64,000 nt of DNA, from the NCBI GenBank assembly GCA_026129095.1, contig JAHCIT010000005.1, forward strand, positions 248,001-312,000, written 5' to 3'. The notes below the pieces were generated by a model. It was not told where the DNA came from. It worked only from the letters and a program-made list of their open reading frames with translations, and made no database searches. This document shows positions 2,532-64,000 of this stretch, one piece after another. Within the stretch, counting starts at the first letter, position 1; every line of letters starts with the position of its first letter. Source of the stretch: Deltaproteobacteria bacterium (lineage in GTDB: Bacteria; JAGRBM01; JAHCIT01). Made by a program: the position numbers and the translations under genes.

Positions 2532-3572
2532 TCAGGTGTTCGACAGGTCGCGCTCGGCGGGCGCGGTGCCGCCGTTCGCCAGCCGGATCTGGTGCGAGCT
2601 GTGGATGTCGAGGGCCGCGGGGTCGGCGGGCACCCGCTCGGTGGCGGCGGCAAGGGCGGCCTGGAACATGGCCACCCAGTCGTCCTTCGTCTCCTCGGTG
2701 GGAAACAGGAACTCGTTGGCGATGTTGAGCGCCATGATGGCGGGGCTGCGCTCCTCGTCGAGATCAATGCCGAGCACCTTGAAGGCCGCCTTCATCGCCA
2801 TCACCTGCTTGGAGCGGCCCAGTTCCATTACCTTCCGGGGCTCGATGCCGAGGGTTTCGAAATCCTTCTCCAGCATCTTCGTCTCCCACATGGCCCAGAA
2901 CAGGATCCGCGCCTGGAAGACCATCATCGCGCTCACCTCGGCCTTCGACATGCCCCGGATCATCTCCGGCAGATACTGCATGCCAAGGCCCACGTGCCGG
3001 GCCTCGTCGCGCTCATAGTATTTCATCAGCTCGGCGATGACCGGCTCGGCCTTCAGTTCCCGCACGGTCTGGAAGATCGTGAGCGCCATCGTCTCGATCA
3101 TGAGCTGCATGCCGAGCAGCTTGTAGGCGAGGTTCGGCGTGTCGAGCACGAGGTCCAGGAGCGCCTGCGGCGGGCGGTCCATCCGCTTGGGGACGTAGCC
3201 CAGTTCCTTCAGGTAATCGTGCATCACGTAGAAGTGGCGGGCCTCGTCGAACGCCTGGCTCGTGGCGGCCATCTTCGCCTCCAGCGGCACCAGCCCGTCG
3301 GCGAGCTGGGCGCTGATCTTCCACGCGGCGAGTTCGCCCCACATGATGATGGCGAAGATGCGCGAGATGGCCTTGCGCTTGTCGTCGGGGATATTGATGC
3401 CGCCGTGCTCCCTGAGCAGCATCGGGAGGATATCCTTCCCGTCCCAGGCGAGATCCTGTCCCTTGTGGTAGATGTTCTCGCACCTGGCGAACCGGCGGGC
3501 CTGCTCGGCGTCGCGCTCCATGTCGAACATGTCGTAGCGAATCTGGGTCTTTCCGTATCCGGCAATGGCCAT
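2532..3572 (-). CDS. Ferritin-like di-iron domain protein (AurF/desaturase-like four-helix bundle)
   Basis: GELAA...DEARH and IETMA...DEARH paired E/ExxH ligands. Confidence 0.8.
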   Translation of the reverse strand: MAIAGYGKTQIRYDMFDMERDAEQARRFARCENIYHKGQDLAWDGKDILPMLLREHGGINIPDDKRKAISRIFAIIMWGELAAWKISAQLADGLVPLEAKMAATSQAFDEARHFYVMHDYLKELGYVPKRMDRPPQALLDLVLDTPNLAYKLLGMQLMIETMALTIFQTVRELKAEPVIAELMKYYERDEARHVGLGMQYLPEMIRGMSKAEVSAMMVFQARILFWAMWETKMLEKDFETLGIEPRKVMELGRSKQVMAMKAAFKVLGIDLDEERSPAIMALNIANEFLFPTEETKDDWVAMFQAALAAATERVPADPAALDIHSSHQIRLANGGTAPAERDLSNT

Positions 3573-3591
3573 GATGGAATCTCCTTAAGCG

Positions 3592-4284
3592 TCAGGGTTT
3601 CAGGGCGACGGCCCCGCGGAACAGGACCTGCTTGATGTCCTCGAACATGAGGCGGGCTTCCTGCCCGTTCTCCATGAAGTTGCTGTGGACGACGAACCCG
3701 GCGATCACCGCCTGCACCAGCGCGGCCGCCCGGTCCAGGGGGAGCATCAGCCGGCCGGCGTCGGGGCCGAGCGCCGCCCGGATCGTCTCGCACACCAGCC
3801 GGTGCTGGAGGCGGTCGAACTCCCGTATCCGCTCCCGGAGGCGTTCGTTGAAGTTGGCCGTGGACCACATCTCCATGAGGAAGGCGACGCGCTCGCGGTT
3901 GGCGATCAGCAGGTCGAACAGGGCGTCAGCGGCCGTGAGCAGCCGCTCGACCGACGGGGCCTCGACACGCGAACGCTCCAGCACGCCCGCCGCGATCCCC
4001 TCGCTCATGCGCGTCACGGCGGCGATGAGGATCTCTTCCTTGGAGGCGAAGTGGTAGTGGAGAAGGCTTTTCGACACCCCCGCGGCGAGCGCGATCTCCT
4101 TGGTGGAGGCGCCTTCGTAGCCGTGGCGGGCGAAACACTGGATGGCCGCCTCGACGATGCGGTCCACCGATTCGGGAACAGAATCAGCACCCTGCGCCGG
4201 TCTGGCGGTTTCGGCATCGGTTTGGCGGGGGTTCGTGACCACGGATTTCTTATAAACTGGCCAGCCAGTCAGTGTCAACAACAT
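3592..4284 (-). CDS. TetR/AcrR family transcriptional regulator (start may be near 4242)
   Basis: IVEAAIQCFARHGYEGASTKEIALAAGVSKSLLHYHF HTH. Confidence 0.92.
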   Translation of the reverse strand: MLLTLTGWPVYKKSVVTNPRQTDAETARPAQGADSVPESVDRIVEAAIQCFARHGYEGASTKEIALAAGVSKSLLHYHFASKEEILIAAVTRMSEGIAAGVLERSRVEAPSVERLLTAADALFDLLIANRERVAFLMEMWSTANFNERLRERIREFDRLQHRLVCETIRAALGPDAGRLMLPLDRAAALVQAVIAGFVVHSNFMENGQEARLMFEDIKQVLFRGAVALKP

Positions 4285-4354
4285 TCATCCATAACAACCT
4301 TAATCCGTTGTAATTATTGGAATCTTCAGCCTCCGGTGCTACAGGCCACCCGCC

Positions 4355-5329
4355 ATGAGTCGCCGCAAGAAACTGTTTGTTACTGCCGCCATCGTCCTGC
4401 TTGTTGCCCTGGGAATGATGCTGCTCCGCCAGCGCCCGGCACCCAAGACCCCGCGCCAACGGGAACGGGCAGCCGAATCCCGGCGGGATCCGGTCCGCGA
4501 GGCCAGGCCCCTCGCCAGCGCCAAGCCCCCCGAAGCCGGGGAAGAGGCGGAGGAGGAGGAAAAGCCCAGGTCCCGCTGCGGCAGGGGTGCCGGCCGGGAG
4601 ATCCGGCTCCAGCGGCTCGATGAGGTCATCTGGATCAAGACCAACGACGAGCTCTTCGAACTGCCCGAGGCCTATAGCGGCGATCACCGGGTCCGGGCCA
4701 CCGGCAAGGAACAGGAGCGCGAGCGCAAGCGCCCCAGGAAGGAACGGCGGATGATCCGCCTCCATTCGCTCATCCCCACCGGACAGGGGAGCATCGCGGC
4801 CATTGATCTCGTCCCCTGTTTCGGTGACGCCTGGCGGTTCCCCATGGCCGAACTGGACGAGAACCCCGACCGCTACGTCCTGATGCAGAACAAACGCGGG
4901 GTGCTGAAACTGACCGACCGGGTGAAGAACTCCCCGATGGTGGTGAAAAACCTCTATTCGATCGACCTCATTCCCTACGGCGACCCGCGCCTCGACGGCC
5001 CCCGGCCGGGGATCATCGAGAACGACGAAGAAGACCGGATGCACCTCGTCATCGACGCGCCGGGACAGGAACTGAAGACCCTCACCCGCGTGAAGATCCG
5101 CTCCTGCGGCGAGGAGGGATGCCCCATCACCGACTTCCTGCCGCCCGACGTTACCGAGGACTACTGCATCGAGAACAAGCCGGGCATGCGGCTCCGGATG
5201 CGGCCCGCGATCCTGACGAAAAGCCGCGTATGGATACCGGAGCGGGGGCCGGGCCTCCTGTTCTACCCCGGCGGGGTGAAGGGAGCCGCCGTGAACCAGC
5301 CGCTGTCCCTGGGGCCCTGCGATCCGTGA
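4355..5329 (+). CDS. Hypothetical membrane-anchored exported protein
   Basis: Basic N-terminus plus one TM helix, GC3-biased ORF. Confidence 0.65.
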   Translation: MSRRKKLFVTAAIVLLVALGMMLLRQRPAPKTPRQRERAAESRRDPVREARPLASAKPPEAGEEAEEEEKPRSRCGRGAGREIRLQRLDEVIWIKTNDELFELPEAYSGDHRVRATGKEQERERKRPRKERRMIRLHSLIPTGQGSIAAIDLVPCFGDAWRFPMAELDENPDRYVLMQNKRGVLKLTDRVKNSPMVVKNLYSIDLIPYGDPRLDGPRPGIIENDEEDRMHLVIDAPGQELKTLTRVKIRSCGEEGCPITDFLPPDVTEDYCIENKPGMRLRMRPAILTKSRVWIPERGPGLLFYPGGVKGAAVNQPLSLGPCDP

Positions 5330-5397
5330 AACTTGCATCCCCCGGGATGGCCGTTATGCTCCGCCGCTTCCGGTAACGGGAAAAGGAAATCTCCCCA

Positions 5398-6228
5398 ATG
5401 GCCGACATCATCAAGGAAGGCGAAAAGAACCGCACGCACATCGTCGGGCGGTTCATGCGCGAATCCCTGCTGAGCAAGGAACTGCTCGCCAGCACCGAAC
5501 CCCAGCGCGAGGTCCGGCTCCTGCCGGAGGCGAACATCATCGGGGTGGGCGGCCACTCGATCATGGACCGCGGCAAGGCGGCCGTGCTGCCGCTCTGCGA
5601 CGCGCTCGTCCGCGCCAAGGCGAAATACAAGATGATCGTCGGCGTGTCCGGCGGCACCCGCATGCGCCACACGATGAGCGTGGGGCTTGATCTGGGGCTT
5701 CCCACGGGCGGGCTCGCCCAGATCGCCGGGGCGGTTGAGGAACAGAACGCGGCGCTGCTGCAGGCCATCCTCTCGGCCCACGGCGGCGTTGCCATGTGCC
5801 GCGAGCATTTCCCCGAGCTTCCGATCTACCTGGAAGTGGGCATCCTGCCGATCGTGATCTGCATGCCGCCCTACCACTTCTGGGAGGAACCGCCCAGGAA
5901 GGGCCGCCTCCCGATGAACGGACCGGACGTGGGCCTCTACCTTACGGCCGACGTGGTGGGTGCCAGGAGCCTCATCTTCATCAAGGACCAGAAGGGCCTT
6001 TACACCGACAACCCGGATACCAACCCGAACGCGAAGTTCATCCCGGAAGCGACGTGCGACGAGATTCTCAGGGCCGACTACCCCGAACTCATCATCGAGG
6101 AAAAGGTACTGGAATACATGAAGAACGGCCGCCACATCCGCGAGATCCAGATCATCAACGGCCTGGAGCCGGGGAACCTGGAACGGGCCCTCAACGGCGA
6201 GCATGTGGGCACGATCATCCGCGCCTGA
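5398..6228 (+). CDS. mosA: Molybdenum storage protein alpha-like subunit (amino acid kinase fold)
   Basis: N-terminal arm HIVGRFMRESLL, MDRG, GLDLGLP, PPYH, NGLEPGNLERALNGEHVGTII. Confidence 0.75.
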   Translation: MADIIKEGEKNRTHIVGRFMRESLLSKELLASTEPQREVRLLPEANIIGVGGHSIMDRGKAAVLPLCDALVRAKAKYKMIVGVSGGTRMRHTMSVGLDLGLPTGGLAQIAGAVEEQNAALLQAILSAHGGVAMCREHFPELPIYLEVGILPIVICMPPYHFWEEPPRKGRLPMNGPDVGLYLTADVVGARSLIFIKDQKGLYTDNPDTNPNAKFIPEATCDEILRADYPELIIEEKVLEYMKNGRHIREIQIINGLEPGNLERALNGEHVGTIIRA

Positions 6229-54988: not shown

Positions 54989-55148
54989 TGGCTGTTATTC
55001 ATGATCGTCACGGACGACCAGCGCAAGCCGGACCTGTCCAACCCCGTGACAAACTGACTTTTGCTAAATAGTATTTCAAAAGGTAGGAATGGCAGCGTAG
55101 CGATTACGAGTGATCCTAGGGGCGGTCGGCAATGCAGCCTGCTAATTG

Positions 55149-56420
55149 ATGGTCAAGATGAAGCCACGAGCAGCAGATTTCTACCGAATTAATCCGCCCG
55201 GCGTTTGTTCTCGCCGAAATAGATTAACTGCCGTCGATCTTTTTGCAGGCGCAGGCGGCATCTCGCTTGGGTTGATGAATTCTGGGTTCGATGTGCTTTT
55301 CGCGTCTGATATTTCCGGTCCGTGTATGGCGACGCATACGCTAAATCTTCCGAATATTAAATTCCAGCAAACCGATATCAGGTCTCTATCAGGCGCGAAA
55401 ATATTGCGTCAGACTGGTTTAGGTCGGGGCGAGCTGGACCTATTGATTGGTGGGCCACCGTGCCAAGGTTTTAGTATCCTCGGACAACGTGTCCTTGAAG
55501 ATCCTCGTAACCGCCTGTTTCAAGAGTTTGTTCGCATTGTTGGCGAACTGAAGCCCCGCGTCGCCGTGATCGAAAATGTCCCGGGCCTCGCTACCCTGAG
55601 CAAAGGTGTGCTTTTGAGTAGAATCGGGGCAGCCTTCGGAAGATTGGGTTATCGTGTGGAATGCGCGGAGCTTTTAGCTGCCCAATATGGTGTTCCCCAG
55701 ATGCGTTGGAGAATGTTTTTCGTCGCATGGCGGTCAGATTTCGGCCCGCGAACTGCGGGTTTCCCCGTCCCAACTCATGGGCGATTGGGAATTGGTGATC
55801 TAGTCCCAAATCGAAAGATTACAGACGTCCAATCCAAAGGCTTCCTGTCAATTTGGGATGCAATTAGTGATCTTCCGCCAATTGAGAGCGGCGAAGTCGG
55901 AACGATATATACGAATAAACCCAAATCGCCGTATCAAGTAGCCATGCGAGCAAACTGCAAACGCGCCGAATTGCACAATCACTATGCTCCAAAATTGTCA
56001 CCCATAAATCTCCAGAGAATTCAGACGCTCCAACCCGGCCAAGACTGGCGAGACTTACCACGAGAATTACTCCCTCCGGGGATGCAGCGCGCGCTACGAA
56101 AGGACCACACTCGTCGTTTTAGACGGATGAAGTGGGATGGCATTGCGCGCGCCATCATCACTAGATTTCGCGATCCCAAATCGGGGGAGTACATCCACCC
56201 CGACCAAACCCGCACGATAAGCATTCGGGAGGCTGCTCGTATTCAATCGTTTCCAGATTGGTTCGTGTTTGAAGGGAACTATACCGATCAGTACGATCAG
56301 ATCGGGAATGCCGTTCCGCCACTATTGGCACGCGCTGTAGGAACTGAAATCCAACAGGCTCTTGCAGCAGCGAGTGTTGAGCGTATAGTGCCAAAATCAC
56401 GATATAAAATTCCTGCGTGA
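55149..56420 (+). CDS. dcm: DNA (cytosine-5) methyltransferase
   Basis: DLFAGAGG, GGPPCQGFS, ENVPG, YGVPQMRWR, REAARIQSFPD, QIGNAVPP. Confidence 0.96.
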   Translation: MVKMKPRAADFYRINPPGVCSRRNRLTAVDLFAGAGGISLGLMNSGFDVLFASDISGPCMATHTLNLPNIKFQQTDIRSLSGAKILRQTGLGRGELDLLIGGPPCQGFSILGQRVLEDPRNRLFQEFVRIVGELKPRVAVIENVPGLATLSKGVLLSRIGAAFGRLGYRVECAELLAAQYGVPQMRWRMFFVAWRSDFGPRTAGFPVPTHGRLGIGDLVPNRKITDVQSKGFLSIWDAISDLPPIESGEVGTIYTNKPKSPYQVAMRANCKRAELHNHYAPKLSPINLQRIQTLQPGQDWRDLPRELLPPGMQRALRKDHTRRFRRMKWDGIARAIITRFRDPKSGEYIHPDQTRTISIREAARIQSFPDWFVFEGNYTDQYDQIGNAVPPLLARAVGTEIQQALAAASVERIVPKSRYKIPA

Positions 56421-57538
56421 TGAAGAAACCAAGCAAAGCCGCTCGTGGAAATTATGTTAGCGAATGGTTCGGCCATCGCGTATTTCCGAATGTCGTAGCC
56501 GGGAAAAAGAGTTTGAAAGAGCAGCAAGCAGAGTCGTGCCCCTTCTTAACCGCTGCAATTGGTGAGGTCAGAACATGTATCAAAAGTAGTGCTGCGCGAG
56601 GTGTGTGCACGATCAACACTGCTACTAGTGGTACCAGAATGGATTGGCTGGTCTGCCCATACCGAGCTCTTGATCCGTCACTTCTTGAAAGTGCGGTCAG
56701 ACGGCTATTCGGATTTCGCGAAAGCCAAGCTGTATATATCATTCCTGCCATTCGGTTAGAGGCAGAGAAAATCAGAGAAGAGATAGGCCAAAGGCTCCGA
56801 TCAGGAGATCGGGTATTTATTTATTTTGACGAAAAACTAGGCGGCGAACTAAGTATACCCGCAACTGCGAAGTCGCCAGAGTTTTCCTTCGACGTCACAA
56901 TAATCGAAATCGAATTATCAGATGGTCGGCCGCATGTTGGCCGTTTTGGCGTTATTGAAATTCAGACCATGGATTTCCACGGCTCATATAGAAAGGCCGT
57001 TGCTAATCTCAAGGACGCTCTTCGGCTGCACCCAAAAGATTTTGCTACATCATTACAGACCAATCAAAACTGGTTGAGTGAGGATATTGAAGGTCCAAAT
57101 ATAGCCAATGTGTTTAAACGAACATTCTATCAAATGATGTTTAAGTTTCAGCTCGGTCAAAATCCACGTTGTGCAGGATGTGTCCTTGCCGTTCCACTGT
57201 CGGTTTGGGAAAGTTGGCAGCGTCACTTGGGACAACCAGAGCTGAGATCAGAGCCAGATGGGACATTCAGTCTGTTCCCAAGTGGTGGTGCCCGACCCCC
57301 CATTGTACCGGCTTGGATATACGTATTTGATATAAGTTCTATGAGTCGAACATCGCCCAGCCCACTAGTAATTTCAAAGATTATTGCTACCGATGCGACA
57401 TCTATTTCTCACTATGCACTTCAGGTCGCACCCGCAGCAGCATTAGAAAATATAGCATCTGCAACGGGTATGTTGACGCTTTTGGCACGCCGTATAAGCA
57501 GGCTTTGGCCGGAGTTAGGTACAACGTTAACGGTGTGA
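56417..57538 (+). CDS. NotI-family type II restriction endonuclease
   Basis: EWFG, four Cys (CPF, C-IK, GVC, VCPYR), FD...IEIQ catalytic motif; coupled to the methyltransferase. Confidence 0.8.
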   Translation: MMKKPSKAARGNYVSEWFGHRVFPNVVAGKKSLKEQQAESCPFLTAAIGEVRTCIKSSAARGVCTINTATSGTRMDWLVCPYRALDPSLLESAVRRLFGFRESQAVYIIPAIRLEAEKIREEIGQRLRSGDRVFIYFDEKLGGELSIPATAKSPEFSFDVTIIEIELSDGRPHVGRFGVIEIQTMDFHGSYRKAVANLKDALRLHPKDFATSLQTNQNWLSEDIEGPNIANVFKRTFYQMMFKFQLGQNPRCAGCVLAVPLSVWESWQRHLGQPELRSEPDGTFSLFPSGGARPPIVPAWIYVFDISSMSRTSPSPLVISKIIATDATSISHYALQVAPAAALENIASATGMLTLLARRISRLWPELGTTLTV

Positions 57539-57795
57539 GGATTCCTTCCGTAGCGAATTATTGCGGGGGGGGATGATGATTGACACGTCCAGCAGGACGG
57601 ACCAATCGTACCAGATACGAGGATGAATCCATGATGGCCCGGGAACCCCAAAGGCATCTGGTTTGAGACTAGCCTTGGAGTGCACGGAATTGTCACGCGG
57701 TGTGCCATCTGGCGAAAACAGGATAATGCATTTGGGGTGTTGTAAAAATCGTATGGATATTTAAAATACGAATGATAGGTGCCATACTTTCCCTA

Positions 57796-58063
57796 ATGGC
57801 GGGGAAGCTCGTGACACTTGTGGTCACCTTCGACCTGGATGAAGACGATGATTACGACGATGCGTACAAGGTCTTAGCTAACTTCAATCTTGAGCCCGTA
57901 ACCACGAAAAAAATTGCCATTGCCGAGCACTACAGTGATGGGGAAGGTAACTATTGAAAATGCTGCTGCGGCTCGCGACGCAATTTTGGAGGTATTGAGG
58001 GCTGCCGGTTTGACCGTTAAACAAATCCTGGTTGTTGACGCAAACAAATGGGCCTCTAAATGA
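57796..58063 (+). pseudogene. Small ferredoxin-fold (Cas2/GhoS-like) gene split by a frameshift at an A7 run
   Basis: LVVTFDLDEDDDYDDAYKVL...TTKK continues in the +1 frame as LPLPSTTVMG...ARDAILEVL...ILVVDANKWASK*. Confidence 0.5.
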
Positions 58064-58140
58064 ACCTGATCTCGGGCTGCTGACTGTGCTAAAACCGGTG
58101 CACACGCACGGCTGCTTTACATCAAGAGACACGCGGCGCC

Positions 58141-58163
58141 CTTCCAGACGATCGCGCTGGAAG
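58141..58163. terminator. Possible hairpin between convergent genes
   Basis: cttccag-N9-ctggaag inverted repeat; no clear U-tract. Confidence 0.3.
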
Positions 58164-58177
58164 ACCTATGACAGAGC

Positions 58178-58816
58178 CTAATGCAAAAATTCATTAAATT
58201 TGAAGATGAAATTTCCGACCGATGCGACTTTGCTTAAGGGTTCGAGCAGTCTTGAAATAATACCGGCGTCGGGCTTCGTCTTAGAGAACTGCCGTTCAAT
58301 TTCATCCAAGTCGCCCAAATGCTCACGTCTCTCAACGTCGGTCAGATTTGCGTCACTGCTTAGAGCGTTCTTTGCGGCCCTAATTAGGGTGGCCAAAGTT
58401 TCTGAATCGACTGGACTGGGAAGGGTTTGGCTAATTGAGCTGTGCTTTCCCGTGAAAGCTATCTGGTTACTATTTCCATGCACGTTTACGACATTTACTT
58501 CGTGCTGGACATTATTGCCATCGTCGCTGCCGTCACGGTTTGATTCGACAAACATTCGTCCCTTCCCGGTCAGTTCCGCGTGAACCATTCCCTTGGGAAG
58601 AAATAGGCATTTGGCTATGCCTTGATCTTGCAGAGCATGCCCAGCGTCGATGAACCATCCGGAATCTGGCACGTCTATATCGAGAGCTCCCGCAATTTCC
58701 GGAAGCGGATAGTAGTGTGAACCCTTCTCTTGATCGAGGAGATAAAGCTGCTCAACAAGTTGGTTGAAGAATTCTGTGAAGGTAACCCGTGCCATAGAAG
58801 TTTTTTCCTGCGTCAT
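58178..58816 (-). CDS. Hypothetical protein (possible N-terminal winged helix, low-complexity linker, helical C-terminus)
   Basis: 212 aa ORF; LTGKG wing-like motif; divergent from the MBL gene. Confidence 0.6.
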   Translation of the reverse strand: MTQEKTSMARVTFTEFFNQLVEQLYLLDQEKGSHYYPLPEIAGALDIDVPDSGWFIDAGHALQDQGIAKCLFLPKGMVHAELTGKGRMFVESNRDGSDDGNNVQHEVNVVNVHGNSNQIAFTGKHSSISQTLPSPVDSETLATLIRAAKNALSSDANLTDVERREHLGDLDEIERQFSKTKPDAGIISRLLEPLSKVASVGNFIFKFNEFLH

Positions 58817-59122
58817 ACACCTGAAATCCAGTTATTCGAGTTTCGAAGCTGAACTGTCCCAGATTACAAGATTGCTGATGGAGCCTCTATATTTCCCCAT
58901 AATATCACATGGTTATATTTTTTATTTTTCGTACCCTTGACGTTTTTTGAGCGATAGCCATTTTAAGCAATGAGGGCTTTGGGGCTAAATCATTTGGTTT
59001 GGCCGACGTTGTGTTTTGGGAAGGCGTGAGCCTCAAAGACTTCATTCTTCGATCTCTTTTCGGCAACTCCTTTCCAGAATGGCACGATGTTGAATGCTGA
59101 AGTGGCATTTAAGGGAGTTACC

Positions 59123-60226
59123 GTGACCTCCGAAGACTTGTATCCGAAAAGCAATGTAATGCGTGTCCTTTTTCTGTACGTTGGGCAGGGAGAGGCAACC
59201 CTTTTTCTCGTACCTGACGGCCTTGGTGGACACATCTCCATGCTTGTGGACTGCAACTATTCGCCGTCACTCAACGGAATCGACCTGCCATGCTTTTTAG
59301 CGGATACGCTCCCTAAGAATTCCAAGGGCAGACCGGTTCTCGACTTGTTCGTTAATACGCACCCTCATTCGGATCATCTTGGTGGCCTCAAAGCTCTACG
59401 GCAGGCCATAGAGATTCAGAACGTCTGGCACAGCGGTCATAATCCTGGCCGGGAACACGGTGATGCCTATAAAGAGCTGCAAACCCTGATGAAAGAAGTG
59501 GAAGACCGAAAGGGAAAGGTTGAAGAACTTCAGGGATCCCGGACGGCGGTCAAATTCGGAGCCGCTGAAGTTCATATCCTGGCGCCAGCCGAATACGTGA
59601 AAGATGAAATCGCCGACGAAAAGGCCGAAACACGCTATCAGCGTATACATGAGCATTGTGCGGTGCTTCGGGTAAGATACGGCTCCGCCGGCAAAAAAGT
59701 AGGTGTCCTGGTGACCGGGGATGCCGATAAAGCCGCATGGGAAAATCACATCACCGATTACCACGGTGCAAAAGAAGAGAACCGGCTAAAATCGGAAATA
59801 CTTAGTGCTTCCCACCACGGGTCCAGAACGTTTTTCAAAACGGATGAGGACGATGACAAGCCGTACACCAAACATCTCGATTACATCCAGCCAGAACGCT
59901 TGGTAATTTCCGCGCCGGCCCAGAAGGACAGTCCTCACGATCATCCGCACGATGATGCTCTTGAACTTTATCAAACATACATCGAAACGGACTGCATTCA
60001 CCATATGGGAGCCGGGCGTTGGTCATTTCAACTCGATGTTGATGACAAAGGGGATTACGAACTTGAAGAGGACCGAGGTAAAATTGCGGATGAATACCCG
60101 GCTTCGGATGATGATGAAAAATCAGACAAAGGCGGCGGCAGTGGCGGCACAAAAGCTACCATCGCCAGCACGCCCATCAGCCGTGTCGGCAAAACCCATC
60201 CAATGGGGATGCCAAGCGAGCGGTAA
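59123..60226 (+). CDS. ComEC/Rec2-like metallo-beta-lactamase fold hydrolase with a disordered C-terminal tail
   Basis: YVGQGEA, LVDC, THPHSDHLGG, TGDA, SHHGS, HPH; GTG preceded by AAGGGAG (alternative ATG at 59087). Confidence 0.9.
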   Translation: MTSEDLYPKSNVMRVLFLYVGQGEATLFLVPDGLGGHISMLVDCNYSPSLNGIDLPCFLADTLPKNSKGRPVLDLFVNTHPHSDHLGGLKALRQAIEIQNVWHSGHNPGREHGDAYKELQTLMKEVEDRKGKVEELQGSRTAVKFGAAEVHILAPAEYVKDEIADEKAETRYQRIHEHCAVLRVRYGSAGKKVGVLVTGDADKAAWENHITDYHGAKEENRLKSEILSASHHGSRTFFKTDEDDDKPYTKHLDYIQPERLVISAPAQKDSPHDHPHDDALELYQTYIETDCIHHMGAGRWSFQLDVDDKGDYELEEDRGKIADEYPASDDDEKSDKGGGSGGTKATIASTPISRVGKTHPMGMPSER

Positions 60227-62613
60227 TGTTCCCAGGCATTCCATGGTTCGTTGAGCATCCTGATCTGTATCGATCGGAGGCTAGTGAACTTCGAGAAAAG
60301 TTCCCCGAAATGACGGAGATGCCGGAACCGGATATTTCGGGGCGTGTCTACTTCTATGGCGCTTTGAAATTCCACTCCGGACGAACGACAACTTCCGTCA
60401 ATATCGTTTTGTATTATCCAGCCGATTTTCCGTATTCGTCGCCCGCTGTTATCCCGGTAGAAAAATTGCCCCACGAGTTGGGGCAAGAAGCACCGCTTCT
60501 GCTTGATCGCTCGAATATCCGTTTCTTTTCCGCCCGTCACCAAATGGCTAGCGGAATGATTTGTCTTTACGAAGCAGATGGCCGCCCTTGGCACCATCTT
60601 GCCGTGACGGGTGTTGAAGCACTCCACAGGGCCAGGAAATGGCTACGTCACGCAATACGAGGGCAATTCCCTAGCGATCTCGATGGCGATCATGCAGAAC
60701 TCTCAGAACATTACCAGGCAACTGGTGACGTATTGGTCGGCCCGGCAATGCATCGAACTAATCTAGGGGCTCCGAAGCGGTTCCTAGCCGTTCAACTTCG
60801 ACCTAAGCAGCAACTATTCGCGGTAACTCATGTCCAATATGAACACGGATGGGCAGATGATCGAGCCGTCTTTAATAGACTAATGCCTGAAGCATTTGGG
60901 AACGAGCAGTGGTGGGATTCCGCAGGGACGACAGAAAATCTGGATATTTTGCGGGTGAAACCGGACTGTCTGGTCGGCGAGTGCTACCCCATTTCCGGGG
61001 AGCCTCGGCCATATCGATCAGCTTCCGAATTCGCCCAAACGCTATATCCGGAAAAGGGCGCCGCAGCCATTGAAGCTCTTCAAGAAAAATATGCTGTTGA
61101 GCGGACCTGCCGGGAAAAGGTGGTATTGCCTATTCAATATCCAGGCAGGGCAGGCAGTTGGGAATGGCTATTTATCGAATTGCAAATAAAAAACACTGCT
61201 CCTGAACGAATCAAAGCTCCCACAGGGGAGATGGTCCCTCTCTTAGATTTAAGTCCTTCATCCCGAACAGCACTCGCTACTGCTGTCCCAACAGTATTAC
61301 GCCAACATGATTTACAGCGCAGAAGTTTGGAGCTTCGCAATGGTGGCCGAGCCCAGCCGGACATTAATAACTGGACGGTATCGCTATTTGGAGCCGGAGC
61401 CATCGGCTCCGAAACGGGCGTGCTTCTTGCCAAAGCGGGAATCGGGAAACTGAAGATATGGGACAACCAAATCCTTTCAGCCGGGAATACCATTAGGCAT
61501 CTATCCGGGCTCTTTGGTGTCGGGTTTCCCAAGGCGTCGCTGACGGAACTGATGGTTAAGCAGCACAATCCGCATTGTGAGGTGGCGTCAACTTTTGGGG
61601 ATGCCCTCGATGCGATAACGAGAAACCCGAATGATGCATGGGGATCCAATGCGACTATCAGCACCATCGCCGATGATGGTGTCGAGTTGCGGTTGAATAA
61701 GCTGGCAGTATCGAGCGGCAAGACGGTTTACTATTTGCGCGCCCTCAGGTCCGGTTCGGTAGGTCAACTGCTGCGGGCTATACCTGGCAGTGGTGCGTGT
61801 CTGGAATGTCTGGCGCATTATCTGCAAGATGAGACGCCGGATCCAAAATCGTTCCCAATGGATGAAATCCCCGGAGAAATTGTCGCTCGTGAATGCGGTA
61901 GACCCATACTTGCGGCAAGTGCAATGGATCTTACGACCGTAGCGGCATTTGGCAGCAGACTTATTCTTGGCGATCTGGCGCAACCGTCTGAAAACAATTT
62001 ATGGGTTTGGACGACCGATGGTATCCCAGGACATTCGGAACTGGCCAAGCCATTTTCGATGGCCTCGTCGTTTTTACCTCCGCACCCAGCATGTTCAGTG
62101 TGCCGCCCCAAGGCGATTGGCAATGTTCATTTTCCAAAGGACGTTCAAGCTCGAATGATAGATTTGGCTCGGCAACATGAGCCGAACGAGACGGGCGGTA
62201 TGCTTATCGGCTATCGGAAGGGACAGGACGTATTTGTTCTGGAGGCAAGTGACGCGGGACCAAAGGCCACCAGCATGCCGTCACGGTTTGAGAGAGATGG
62301 GGGTTACAGTGAAACGTATCTAATGGATGCCGTGCGGCGGAATGGCAACGGTATTGATTATGTCGGTGATTGGCACAGTCACCCCGGATATCCGGCAGTT
62401 CCTAGCCCAAGGGACGCGGTTTCTATGCATGATATTGCGGCAGATCCGGGATACCGTACCGATTACCCGATAATGGCGATAGTCGGCCTGCCCGATAGCG
62501 GGAAATCGGGTGATCCTGAATTCACCTGTTACTGCTTTCCCAAGGGGAGCAGTAGTTACAGCGTCGGTGTGAGGATCACCGATTCTGCTCCAGTATCACG
62601 AACAGGCGATTAA
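60226..62613 (+). CDS. E2-like + ThiF/E1 + JAB (Mov34/MPN) fusion protein
   Basis: YPADFPYSSP...HQ..SGMICLY (E2); GAGAIGS, D...GNTIRH, CLEC, ECG, CSVC (E1); NETGG...GDWHSHP...PSPRD (JAB). Confidence 0.9.
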   Translation: MFPGIPWFVEHPDLYRSEASELREKFPEMTEMPEPDISGRVYFYGALKFHSGRTTTSVNIVLYYPADFPYSSPAVIPVEKLPHELGQEAPLLLDRSNIRFFSARHQMASGMICLYEADGRPWHHLAVTGVEALHRARKWLRHAIRGQFPSDLDGDHAELSEHYQATGDVLVGPAMHRTNLGAPKRFLAVQLRPKQQLFAVTHVQYEHGWADDRAVFNRLMPEAFGNEQWWDSAGTTENLDILRVKPDCLVGECYPISGEPRPYRSASEFAQTLYPEKGAAAIEALQEKYAVERTCREKVVLPIQYPGRAGSWEWLFIELQIKNTAPERIKAPTGEMVPLLDLSPSSRTALATAVPTVLRQHDLQRRSLELRNGGRAQPDINNWTVSLFGAGAIGSETGVLLAKAGIGKLKIWDNQILSAGNTIRHLSGLFGVGFPKASLTELMVKQHNPHCEVASTFGDALDAITRNPNDAWGSNATISTIADDGVELRLNKLAVSSGKTVYYLRALRSGSVGQLLRAIPGSGACLECLAHYLQDETPDPKSFPMDEIPGEIVARECGRPILAASAMDLTTVAAFGSRLILGDLAQPSENNLWVWTTDGIPGHSELAKPFSMASSFLPPHPACSVCRPKAIGNVHFPKDVQARMIDLARQHEPNETGGMLIGYRKGQDVFVLEASDAGPKATSMPSRFERDGGYSETYLMDAVRRNGNGIDYVGDWHSHPGYPAVPSPRDAVSMHDIAADPGYRTDYPIMAIVGLPDSGKSGDPEFTCYCFPKGSSSYSVGVRITDSAPVSRTGD

Positions 62614-63248
62614 CTGGTTGGAAGATTTAGGAATTGGACAAAAAGTTCGCGGGCGTAATAGCAGCCGAAACGATGCATTCGGGCTAGAGCTATCGCAACT
62701 AGTACCCCGAAAAACAACACAGGCCTCCAGCTTCCTGGCCCCTTCTCCCATAACAACAGGGCGGCCACGACCAATAAACTGGCGGCGATTCCACGGCACA
62801 GACCATAGTTGCCATTGAATCGTTCGATTCGCTCTAGTCGATTAGCCGCGCCAATTGCCGCATGTATCTGCCGGGTAATCGGCGTCCATTCGGCTGCCGC
62901 AATTTTGGATAATTCGACCGGTTCATTTCGGCCGAGTAATTTCTGGAGTCGTGTTTCGAGTAATCGCTGCTGATCGGGGCTTATCAAGTTCCCACGACCG
63001 GAAATAACCCAGTCGGTAGGCATTCCTTTGAAGATTTTCCAATGTAACGTTTCAAGCCTATTTCCTATGAACTGAACCAAATGGCCAGCGGCGTACGAAA
63101 GAATGATAAATACCCCAAGATCACCAAACGACGCTCCCGATGCTTTCGCTATCAGGGAGATCGATGGATAGATCAACGATGCGCCGAATATAGTGATTGC
63201 GCCTGGCGCTAAAATGCCCGCGAATTCGTAAAAGTCGAATTGCTTCAC
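62610..63248 (-). CDS. Hypothetical four-TM membrane protein
   Basis: FDFYEFAGILAPG N-terminal TM pair, soluble middle, C-terminal TM pair. Confidence 0.75.
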   Translation of the reverse strand: MKQFDFYEFAGILAPGAITIFGASLIYPSISLIAKASGASFGDLGVFIILSYAAGHLVQFIGNRLETLHWKIFKGMPTDWVISGRGNLISPDQQRLLETRLQKLLGRNEPVELSKIAAAEWTPITRQIHAAIGAANRLERIERFNGNYGLCRGIAASLLVVAALLLWEKGPGSWRPVLFFGVLVAIALARMHRFGCYYARELFVQFLNLPTS

Positions 63249-63613
63249 GTTTGTGCATCCTCAAAGCGTATCTTTGGACAGGTTTTCCGCTTACGCAACT
63301 TTAGCCCGCTCACATTCCCCTTTCGGGTAGAAGGATAAAAAGAGATTCGAACCGTTGGGACATTTAAGCCCTCAGACTCCGGCATAGTGCCCCAGCCCCT
63401 ATCGCTTTTTGCGCCGGGGACCGGGATAAAACCGTCCACATAAACATAACCAGTGATACAAGAACTACCTAACCCCAGTAACTAACTAGCAATAACCCAC
63501 ATATCTAAAATCTCTTGGTCATTTTGCCCCTACCCCCTAATGTGGCGGGATTGTGCGCCAACCTTAACCGAGTAAAATGCAGACCTGAGACATGGCAAGG
63601 AGCCAATAGTTAT

Positions 63614-64000
63614 ATGAGCACGAAACCAAAGACCGATGAGACGAAAGAGAGCCTGTCCCGCAATGAGGGCAAATGGACCCCAAAGCTGATGGCAGCAGGG
63701 TGGGTCGCAATTCCAGCGGTAATCATTGAGCAACAGGCGAAATTGCAGCTCAGTCCGACCGACATGAATATCATTCTGTTTCTCGCATCCAAGTGGTGGG
63801 AGAAAGAAAAACTGCCGTTTCCCAGCAAGAAACATATCGCGGAAAGTATCGGTATCGACGCGAAGACGGTTCAGCGCAGGATCAGCCAGCTCGAAAAGGT
63901 CGGCTATCTGAAACGCCATATTCGTCAACGGGCCGACAAGAGCTTCAAGTCGAACATGTATTCGTTCGATGGGCTCATCGAAAAAAGCACTCCTCTTGCC
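63614..64000 (+). CDS. Winged helix-turn-helix protein (DnaD-N/replication initiator-like), partial
   Basis: Manual translation: KW...GWVAIP...LSPTDMNIILFL...WW...PFPSKKHIAESIGIDAKTVQRRISQLEKVGYL...SNMYSFDGL. Confidence 0.8.
   Translation, partial: MSTKPKTDETKESLSRNEGKWTPKLMAAGWVAIPAVIIEQQAKLQLSPTDMNIILFLASKWWEKEKLPFPSKKHIAESIGIDAKTVQRRISQLEKVGYLKRHIRQRADKSFKSNMYSFDGLIEKSTPLA

Follow-up and report, generated by a model that had tools for sequence, protein, structure and literature searches.

The 64,000-nucleotide (nt) stretch analysed here, hereafter called the window, comes from the genome of a Deltaproteobacteria bacterium (contig JAHCIT010000005.1, positions 248,001 to 312,000 of the forward strand). 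It contains a two-gene operon of the 6A-MBL type, in which the gene of a metallo-beta-lactamase (MBL)-fold protein is followed by the gene of a protein that combines an E2-like module, an E1-like module and a JAB peptidase module. The C-terminus of the MBL protein resembles a handle for ubiquitin-type conjugation, and five more residues follow the glycine that would be conjugated. The locus therefore raises the question of whether this glycine is a conserved end point and, if so, whether the extension behind it is a selected activation step or a consequence of the way in which the two genes are joined. The features on which the answer depends are the following.

59087..60226, + strand: gene of the MBL-fold (ComEC-like) hydrolase, 379 amino acids (aa), presumed conjugated substrate and effector of the 6A-MBL system.
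60104..60148, + strand: acidic, Gly-rich linker S340-G354 (SDDDEKSDKGGGSGG), read from the DNA and its translation, with a predicted local distance difference test (pLDDT) score below 50 from residue 344.
60149..60208, + strand: conserved tail T355-G374 (TKATIASTPISRVGKTHPMG), delimited by homologue conservation, whose last residue is the presumed conjugation residue Gly374.
60209..60223, + strand: five-residue extension MPSER, non-conserved, presumed pro-peptide, encoded by ATG CCA AGC GAG CGG.
60224..60228, + strand: TAATG junction, read from the DNA, in which the stop codon of the MBL gene, TAA (60224-60226), shares one base with the ATG of the partner gene.
60226..62613, + strand: E2-E1-JAB triple-module gene, 795 aa, assigned from Pfam, PADLOC, an alignment and an AlphaFold2 (AF2) model.

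The two genes are co-directional and tightly linked, and the TAATG overlap points to their translational coupling. The MBL C-terminus reads ...EYPASDDDEKSDKGGGSGGTKATIASTPISRVGKTHPMGMPSER, in which CCA ATG GGG at 60200-60208 encode P372, M373 and G374. A preliminary description of this DNA had placed the Gly codon at 60206-60208, with MPSER behind it, and this agrees in every detail with the open reading frame (ORF) and the DNA letters. It had also recognised the acidic, Gly-rich linker behind the folded domain, which corresponds to S340-G354 (60104-60148), and a fused JAB, which is indeed encoded downstream, as the product of 60226..62613 matches ThiF (residues 373-544) and Prok-JAB (residues 637-755) in Pfam. 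Flexibility of the tail is predicted by the AF2 model of the MBL protein, where pLDDT is below 50 across residues 344-379. This 36-residue stretch comprises the linker, followed by a conserved hydrophobic-basic segment, and is thus predicted to be flexible or disordered.

The same description had proposed to examine whether conservation among homologues stops at the glycine. A homologue search with the MBL protein gave 908 proteins at E <=0.001, of which the best 120 were analysed, and genome loci were collected for the best 80 of at least 312 confirmed relatives. The 120 homologues and the MBL ORFs of the 80 loci were pooled, and 177 of these 200 tails could be anchored on xM[G/A] in the last 30 residues, giving 171 unique tails. 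An xMG motif is present within the last 45 residues in 113 of the 120 best homologues, as RPMG in 77, KPMG in 18 and HPMG, the form found in the window, in 4. This frequency is far above chance expectation. Among the 171 unique tails, the entropy is 1.39 bits at position -4 (R/K), 0.80 bits at -3 (P) and 0.19 bits at -1 (G, with five Ala), the Met at -2 being fixed by the anchor itself, whereas it rises to 3.68 bits at +1 and stays at 3.1 bits or more through +6. Conservation does, therefore, stop at the Gly/Ala. In the alignment of 35 sequences from which the MBL family profile was built (A1), conservation of M373 and G374 reaches 90% or more. The linker is rich in D, E, G, N and S in the homologues as well, with no conservation of the sequence itself.

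The constraint on the motif acts on the protein and not on a nucleotide signal, since all four codons of each residue are in use: CCA (19), CCG (15), CCC (10) and CCT (7) for proline, and GGA (25), GGC (11), GGG (11) and GGT (7) for glycine. This codon usage rules out that the PMG motif is conserved as a nucleotide signal such as the ribosome-binding site of the partner gene. A tail predicted to be flexible, a conserved Gly/Ala and a conservation that ends there, which are the features of a Cap2-type substrate, are thus all present. The assignment of Gly374 as the conserved end point of a putative flexible conjugation handle is well supported by this comparison.

The residues that follow the glycine behave differently. 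In the 113 homologues with xMG, the extension has a length of 0 in 34, 1 in 8, 2 in 51, 3 in 10 and 4-20 in 10. Among the unique tails, 55 of 171 stop exactly at the Gly/Ala and 116 carry 1-20 unconserved residues, with at least three residues in 31 tails and at least five in 13. P0002, the nearest homologue (64% identical) among the best 120 of 908, ends in ...RPMG without extension, and the tail of L017 (loci are numbered with the prefix L) is ...KPMG followed by seven residues. What is constrained is the position of the partner gene. The Gly codon and the partner start are separated by 2-11 nt in 59 loci, apart from a few outliers, and by 17 nt in the window. In 55 related loci, where the partner start was fixed by the conserved N-terminal W-[FY]-x-x-H-P, this start shares 1 nt with the MBL stop in 25 cases and 4 nt in 12 (37 of 55 overlapping), and in 52 its distance from the stop falls between -4 and +10 nt. 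As the partner start is coupled to the MBL stop, the extension amounts to whatever the MBL frame encodes past the Gly codon, up to the stop/start. An earlier partner start, overlapping the extension, was considered and ruled out: no in-frame start codon precedes 60226, and in 55 partners the alignable N-terminus begins at this position. The reading we prefer is that the extension is a side product of the coupled junction which is tolerated, and not a conserved regulatory mask.

The distribution of extension-free tails among taxa is in line with this. They are found in 18 of 26 Bacteroidota loci vs 5 of 34 loci of other phyla (Fisher p 3e-05, uncorrected for relatedness), in a count that left out L003 and took the taxa from record titles. 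Bacteroidota largely manage without Shine-Dalgarno pairing, which would allow the partner ATG to lie 2-5 nt from the Gly codon. Outside Bacteroidota, a few loci (L001, L004 and L053) have a stop codon directly after the Gly and the partner start further on, an arrangement which suggests that the uncapped form is easy to evolve.

The type of tail also varies with the architecture of the partner. In 61 of the 80 loci, PMG-type tails are followed by an E1/JAB partner, which is mostly a single E2-E1-JAB ORF of ~760-860 aa; within this group, the partner appears split or fragmented in L004, L037, L041 and L057, and is cut by the contig end in L003. In nine loci (L020, L044, L058, L061, L070, L073, L076, L077 and L078), the tail is ...RRYG, ...RKFG, ...SRFG, ...VRYA, ...ARYA, ...REYA, ...GRSG or ...GRSA-Y, and it is followed by a ThiF-containing E2-E1 protein of ~600-660 aa and a separate JAB of ~165-210 aa. 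Eight of these nine split-JAB loci stop exactly at the Gly/Ala, and L056 (...GKWA) may belong to the same class. In six further loci (L023, L031, L063, L065, L068 and L069; MBL match at ~5001-6100), the tail is ...KPYF, ...RPYY or ...KPYC. No E1 or JAB was detected near the MBL in any of these six. They may represent another type of partner system, so far undescribed, with which the same nuclease is associated. The three remaining loci are uninformative because of a contig end or an odd ORF. A tail type that varies with the partner architecture is the pattern expected if the neighbouring E1 and JAB read the tail. The tail classes coincide, however, with phylogenetic groups and do not count as independent events. 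As a separate observation, the MBL genes with ...PY[FYC] tails are followed by two small ORFs, of ~236-305 aa and ~195-225 aa, the first of which has a SEC-C motif in L023 and L031.

An extension that is read through to the partner start could still have been selected as a mask. The MBL would then be made as an inactive pro-form, and regulated trimming by the JAB, for example on infection, would license conjugation, which is how the preliminary description had understood the fused JAB, as a built-in activation step. It is true that 116 of the 171 unique tails carry an extension, that the JAB is fused in cis where extensions are common, whereas the tail ends at the Gly/Ala in eight of nine loci with a separate JAB, or in nine of ten if L056 is included, and that proteases with a dual maturing and deconjugating role are known in ubiquitin-like systems. 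Nevertheless, the extension is conserved neither in length nor in sequence (entropy of at least 3.1 bits at +1 to +6), it is absent from 55 of 171 tails and from P0002, its end is dictated by the start codon of the partner, and extension-free tails are concentrated in Bacteroidota. Moreover, conservation of the JAB active site does not drop in loci without anything to trim: the JAMM residues show the same invariance in the 11 aligned partners of uncapped MBLs (L001, L012, L018, L022, L046, L051, L053, L055, L060, L062 and L071). Trimming cannot, therefore, be the sole conserved job of the JAB; by analogy with Cap3, that job is most likely deconjugation. There is also no sign in the locus of a signal controlling the JAB. 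We consider a selected mask quite unlikely. The handle proposed in the preliminary description thus has strong comparative support, whereas the built-in licensing step is not supported as a selected feature. A JAB that is specific for the bond after the Gly would make caps harmless.

We lean towards the reading that the two genes constitute a 6A-MBL system in which the MBL is conjugated via Gly374, that MPSER is clipped off by the JAB and that the extension is a by-product of the junction. The activities involved, i.e., adenylation, conjugation, trimming and nuclease activity, are those we infer from the observed anatomy, conservation pattern, fold likeness and junction architecture. The MBL enzyme itself would take the role of ubiquitin, with a disordered tail of ~36 residues ending in ...[R/K/H]-P-M-G. 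The E1 module would adenylate Gly374, which would then be transferred to the E1 cysteine C557 and to the E2 cysteine C113 before ligation to a target. In this genome, MPSER would block the Gly carboxylate of the MBL. As adenylation by an E1 requires a free Gly carboxylate, any capped MBL must be trimmed before adenylation. The JAB module, which would have to recognise the same tail for deconjugation, most likely clips MPSER. The operon encodes no other peptidase, a linear cGAS-GFP fusion is cut by Cap3 precisely behind the final residue of cGAS (10.1101/2022.03.31.486616), and JAB peptidases act on pre-proteins in other bacterial pathways such as Bil and Bub (PMC11601596). On these grounds, trimming of MPSER by the fused JAB is the most economical explanation, and we consider it likely. 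The use of the terminal residue also has a precedent in the Cap2-cGAS structure, where the very C-terminal end of cGAS lies in the adenylation site, linked to adenosine monophosphate, and G436E abolishes defence (10.1101/2022.03.31.486616).

A broader version of this scheme, which appears rather unlikely, is that 6A-MBL nucleases, mostly outside Bacteroidota, are C-terminally capped pro-enzymes for which the cis-fused JAB is both an obligatory activator and the deconjugase. This would amount to a dual protease of the SENP/Atg4 kind in a defence system without a ubiquitin-like protein, with a cap length set by the translational coupling of the lineage. If infection in turn controlled the activity of the JAB, the cap would act as a genuine immune checkpoint.

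Both genes are intact. The MBL protein matches Lactamase_B in Pfam (E 2e-06), and the A1 profile matches the MBL domain of ComEC (9ic4_A) in the PDB (E 1.4e-09). Its AF2 model has a mean pLDDT of 86.5, and the best solved fold is again 9ic4 (Foldseek E 2.6e-19, TM 0.78 on the target). The metal-binding HxHxDH motif (H92, H94, D96 and H97) is invariant in all 35 sequences of A1, as are additional His and Asp residues. The family, profile, fold and HxHxDH assignments thus agree on a specialised MBL-fold protein beside a ligase gene, as in 6A-MBL systems, which is probably an intact ComEC-like phosphodiesterase and presumably a nuclease. PADLOC (2023) is without a 6A-MBL model, and the MBL protein gives only weak LmuA, RT-MBL and PDC matches in it. 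As regards the N-terminus, the database copy of the protein, P0001 (100% identical), has 367 aa, its start being called 12 codons downstream of the ATG at 59087 (59087..59125 region), and residues 1-11 have a pLDDT below 50 and are unaligned with homologues. The true start may be located at this downstream position.

In the partner, the N-terminal ~345 residues, which precede the ThiF and Prok-JAB matches, do not match any Pfam family. The best matches in PADLOC are to models of CBASS (the antiphage signalling system based on cyclic oligonucleotides), namely E1-E2 (E 4.9e-27) and JAB (E 5.7e-23), and the sequence matches the E1 domains of Cap2 and UBA5 and a JAB peptidase in the PDB. The AF2 model (pLDDT 87.4) has as its best PDB match Cap2 in the Cap2-CdnD complex (7to3_A, E 5.7e-23, 657 aligned columns). 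As this alignment extends over 657 columns, the N-terminal 345 residues correspond to the E2-like module, and the module limits are ~1-345 for the E2-like module, ~355-625 for the ThiF-type E1 and ~633-785 for the JAB/JAMM peptidase. This is the domain order of 6A-MBL, in which the E2-like module is followed by the E1-like module and then by the JAB. In an alignment of 38 sequences (A2), made up of this protein and 37 partners of related loci, all the following residues are invariant (38/38): R104 H105 Q106...G110..C113, of which the His105...Cys113 pair agrees with the E2 signature described in PMC1779556; G389, G391, G394, D413 and R424 of the E1 nucleotide site; the two CxxC pairs C525/C528 and C623/C626, together with E556-C557; and the JAMM residues E655, H717, H719, S727 and D730. 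The comparison supports the assignment of the partner as a Cap2-like E2-E1 in which the catalytic residues and the JAMM site are intact.

These residues also bear on whether conjugation takes place at all. The E1 might merely modify or hold the C-terminus, for example by an MccB-like adenylation, or by a non-covalent docking through which the nuclease would be kept sequestered up to infection. The fold matches of the E1 include MccB-peptide complexes, no conjugation target is known, and the complex prediction described below indicates binding at most. Pure adenylation or docking would, however, have no need for the invariant RHQ...G..C of the E2 and E556-C557 of the E1, and the whole E2-E1 aligns with Cap2, which is a conjugating enzyme. 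In addition, a terminal Gly/Ala followed by free variation is the signature of an end that is ligated or cleaved. We regard the absence of conjugation as very unlikely.

Conjugation through the tail presupposes its binding by the partner, for which the complex of the full E2-E1-JAB protein (A2) with MBL residues 325-379 (A1) was predicted. The interaction prediction score from aligned errors (ipSAE) was 0.58, and the best of three controls reached 0.00. Of 157 solved complexes, 116 attain the mark used for ipSAE, as do 2 of 215 mismatched pairs; only 18 of the 157 solved complexes, but both of the passing mismatches, are at 0.60 or below. The runs had a contact agreement of at least 69% and a partner pLDDT of at least 44, and as they used custom alignments, the benchmark counts hold only roughly. 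This prediction lends weak support to binding between the tail and the partner, and the pass may reflect memory of a similar solved complex, Cap2-CdnD (7TO3).

It is highly improbable that in this genome the extension stays on and that this copy of the MBL cannot be conjugated, is partly decayed or is under a different regulation: five residues are unusually long (at least five in just 13 of 171 tails) and HPMG replaces the common RPMG (HPMG in 4 of 113), but neither gene is damaged and no catalytic residue is missing, the close coupling by TAATG is preserved, the motif is also kept in homologues with extensions of 4-20 residues, and Cap3-type JABs cleave far longer linear fusions.

Four points weigh against conjugation through Gly374 with the extension as a by-product of the junction. 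First, seven of the 120 homologues are without the motif: three are apparently frameshifted or truncated, one ends in ...RRQG, one in ...RPMA plus four residues, one in ...KPRGYA and one has no clear motif. Second, the contrast between taxa is confounded by phylogeny, the Bacteroidota loci being close relatives of one another. Third, the complex prediction yields a score alone and does not place the tail in the E1 site as opposed to the JAB site. Fourth, the neutrality of the extension, vs a mild usefulness, is argued from its pattern only.

Van den Berg et al. 2024 (Cell Host Microbe) reportedly gave the 6A-MBL anti-phage system its name and tested it. The present locus is another copy of this known system, and the conjugation of an MBL through its C-terminus is likewise not a new idea. 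A two-gene operon of MBL and E2/E1/JAB corresponds to the type 6a operon in Table 1 (row 6a) of Iyer, Burroughs and Aravind 2006 (PMC1779556), of which row 6b later became type II CBASS. The name 6A-MBL or 6A_MBL is used for a defence system in PMC11601596, PMC13276650, PMC13700489 and 10.1101/2025.09.30.679545, where van den Berg et al. 2024 is cited. [quoted passage not shown] It shows no structural difference from the system; it has a five-residue extension that is longer than most, and HPMG in place of RPMG.

Another close system is type II CBASS, with Cap2 (E2-E1) and Cap3 (JAB) (10.1101/2022.03.31.486616; 7TO3, 7TQD). Both have the E2-E1 fold, a substrate which is an enzyme and not a beta-grasp ubiquitin-like protein, a disordered substrate tail with a conserved small C-terminal residue, and a JAB that in CBASS, as Cap3, cuts after that residue. 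In contrast to CBASS, where the substrate is a nucleotide cyclase, the substrate here would be an MBL-fold hydrolase, the JAB is fused to the ligase and many MBLs carry residues after the Gly. Type II CBASS has a cyclase and a nucleotide-activated effector in its operon, whereas the six ORFs of the 55146-63248 region gave no match to a CD-NTase cyclase model or to an effector model, and matched the E1-E2 and JAB models alone. The Ledvina et al. preprint (10.1101/2022.03.31.486616) makes no mention of MBL or lactamase.

Two other comparisons are informative. As in the processing of ubiquitin-like precursors (e.g., by the Bil and Bub JABs in PMC11601596), there is a variable extension behind the reactive Gly, and a single peptidase could carry out both maturation and deconjugation. 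Unlike in those pathways, there is no beta-grasp ubiquitin-like protein here, and the extension consists of few residues, is missing in many cases and depends on the gene junction. The C-terminal MBL domain of ComEC (9ic4) is the closest solved relative in both fold and sequence, with HxHxDH conserved, whereas the window protein is stand-alone and soluble, has a predicted conjugation tail and is without the competence channel domains.

A literature search yielded Iyer et al. 2006, one sentence in the Discussion of Ye et al. 2024 and passing uses of the name 6A-MBL or 6A_MBL. It found no description of the MBL C-terminal extension, although it did not reach van den Berg et al. 2024 and is not proof that the extension is unpublished. 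The family-wide picture, with tails that are capped or uncapped, caps that go with gene coupling and taxon, and three tail classes tracking the partner, may go beyond what was found in print. 6A-MBL belongs to those bacterial defence systems which rely on ubiquitin-type chemistry but have no ubiquitin-like protein. Its invariant Gly end point, its junction-tied, unconserved caps and its partner-linked tail types suggest simple mutants by which the maturing role of the JAB could be separated from the deconjugating one.

The operon lies in a part of the window with a distinct base composition: the GC content is 0.57-0.65 before 55 kb and 0.47-0.53 from 55 kb to the window end (64000). The other genes of this part are as follows.

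55146..56420: C5 cytosine DNA methyltransferase (Pfam E 1.8e-63).
56417..57538: ORF of 373 aa with a weak PADLOC match to type II restriction endonucleases (E 0.0031), overlapping the methyltransferase gene by 4 nt.
58178..58816, - strand: ORF of 211 aa, no Pfam family, weak PADLOC PDC-M14B matches (E 1.7e-06).
62610..63248, - strand: ORF of 211 aa, no Pfam family, hydrophobic.
63515..64000: DnaD_N/HTH_36 protein, cut by the window end.

The first two genes (55146..57538), which lie directly upstream of the 6A-MBL operon, resemble a restriction-modification pair. The two 211-aa ORFs (58178..58816 and 62610..63248) flank the operon on the opposite strand, and the product of the second may be a membrane protein. 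No tRNA gene that could mark an integration site was found in the 44-64 kb part of the window. In view of the drop in GC content at ~55 kb, the low-GC stretch with the restriction-modification pair, the 6A-MBL operon and the DnaD_N/HTH_36 protein looks like an acquired defence island. In one of the related loci, L037, an ORF of 876 aa (3561..6188) is located directly downstream of the 6A-MBL pair and matches DUF6079 (E 9e-135), with a weak BrxC/BrxD-like ATPase match; this ORF may belong to a further cluster of defence genes.

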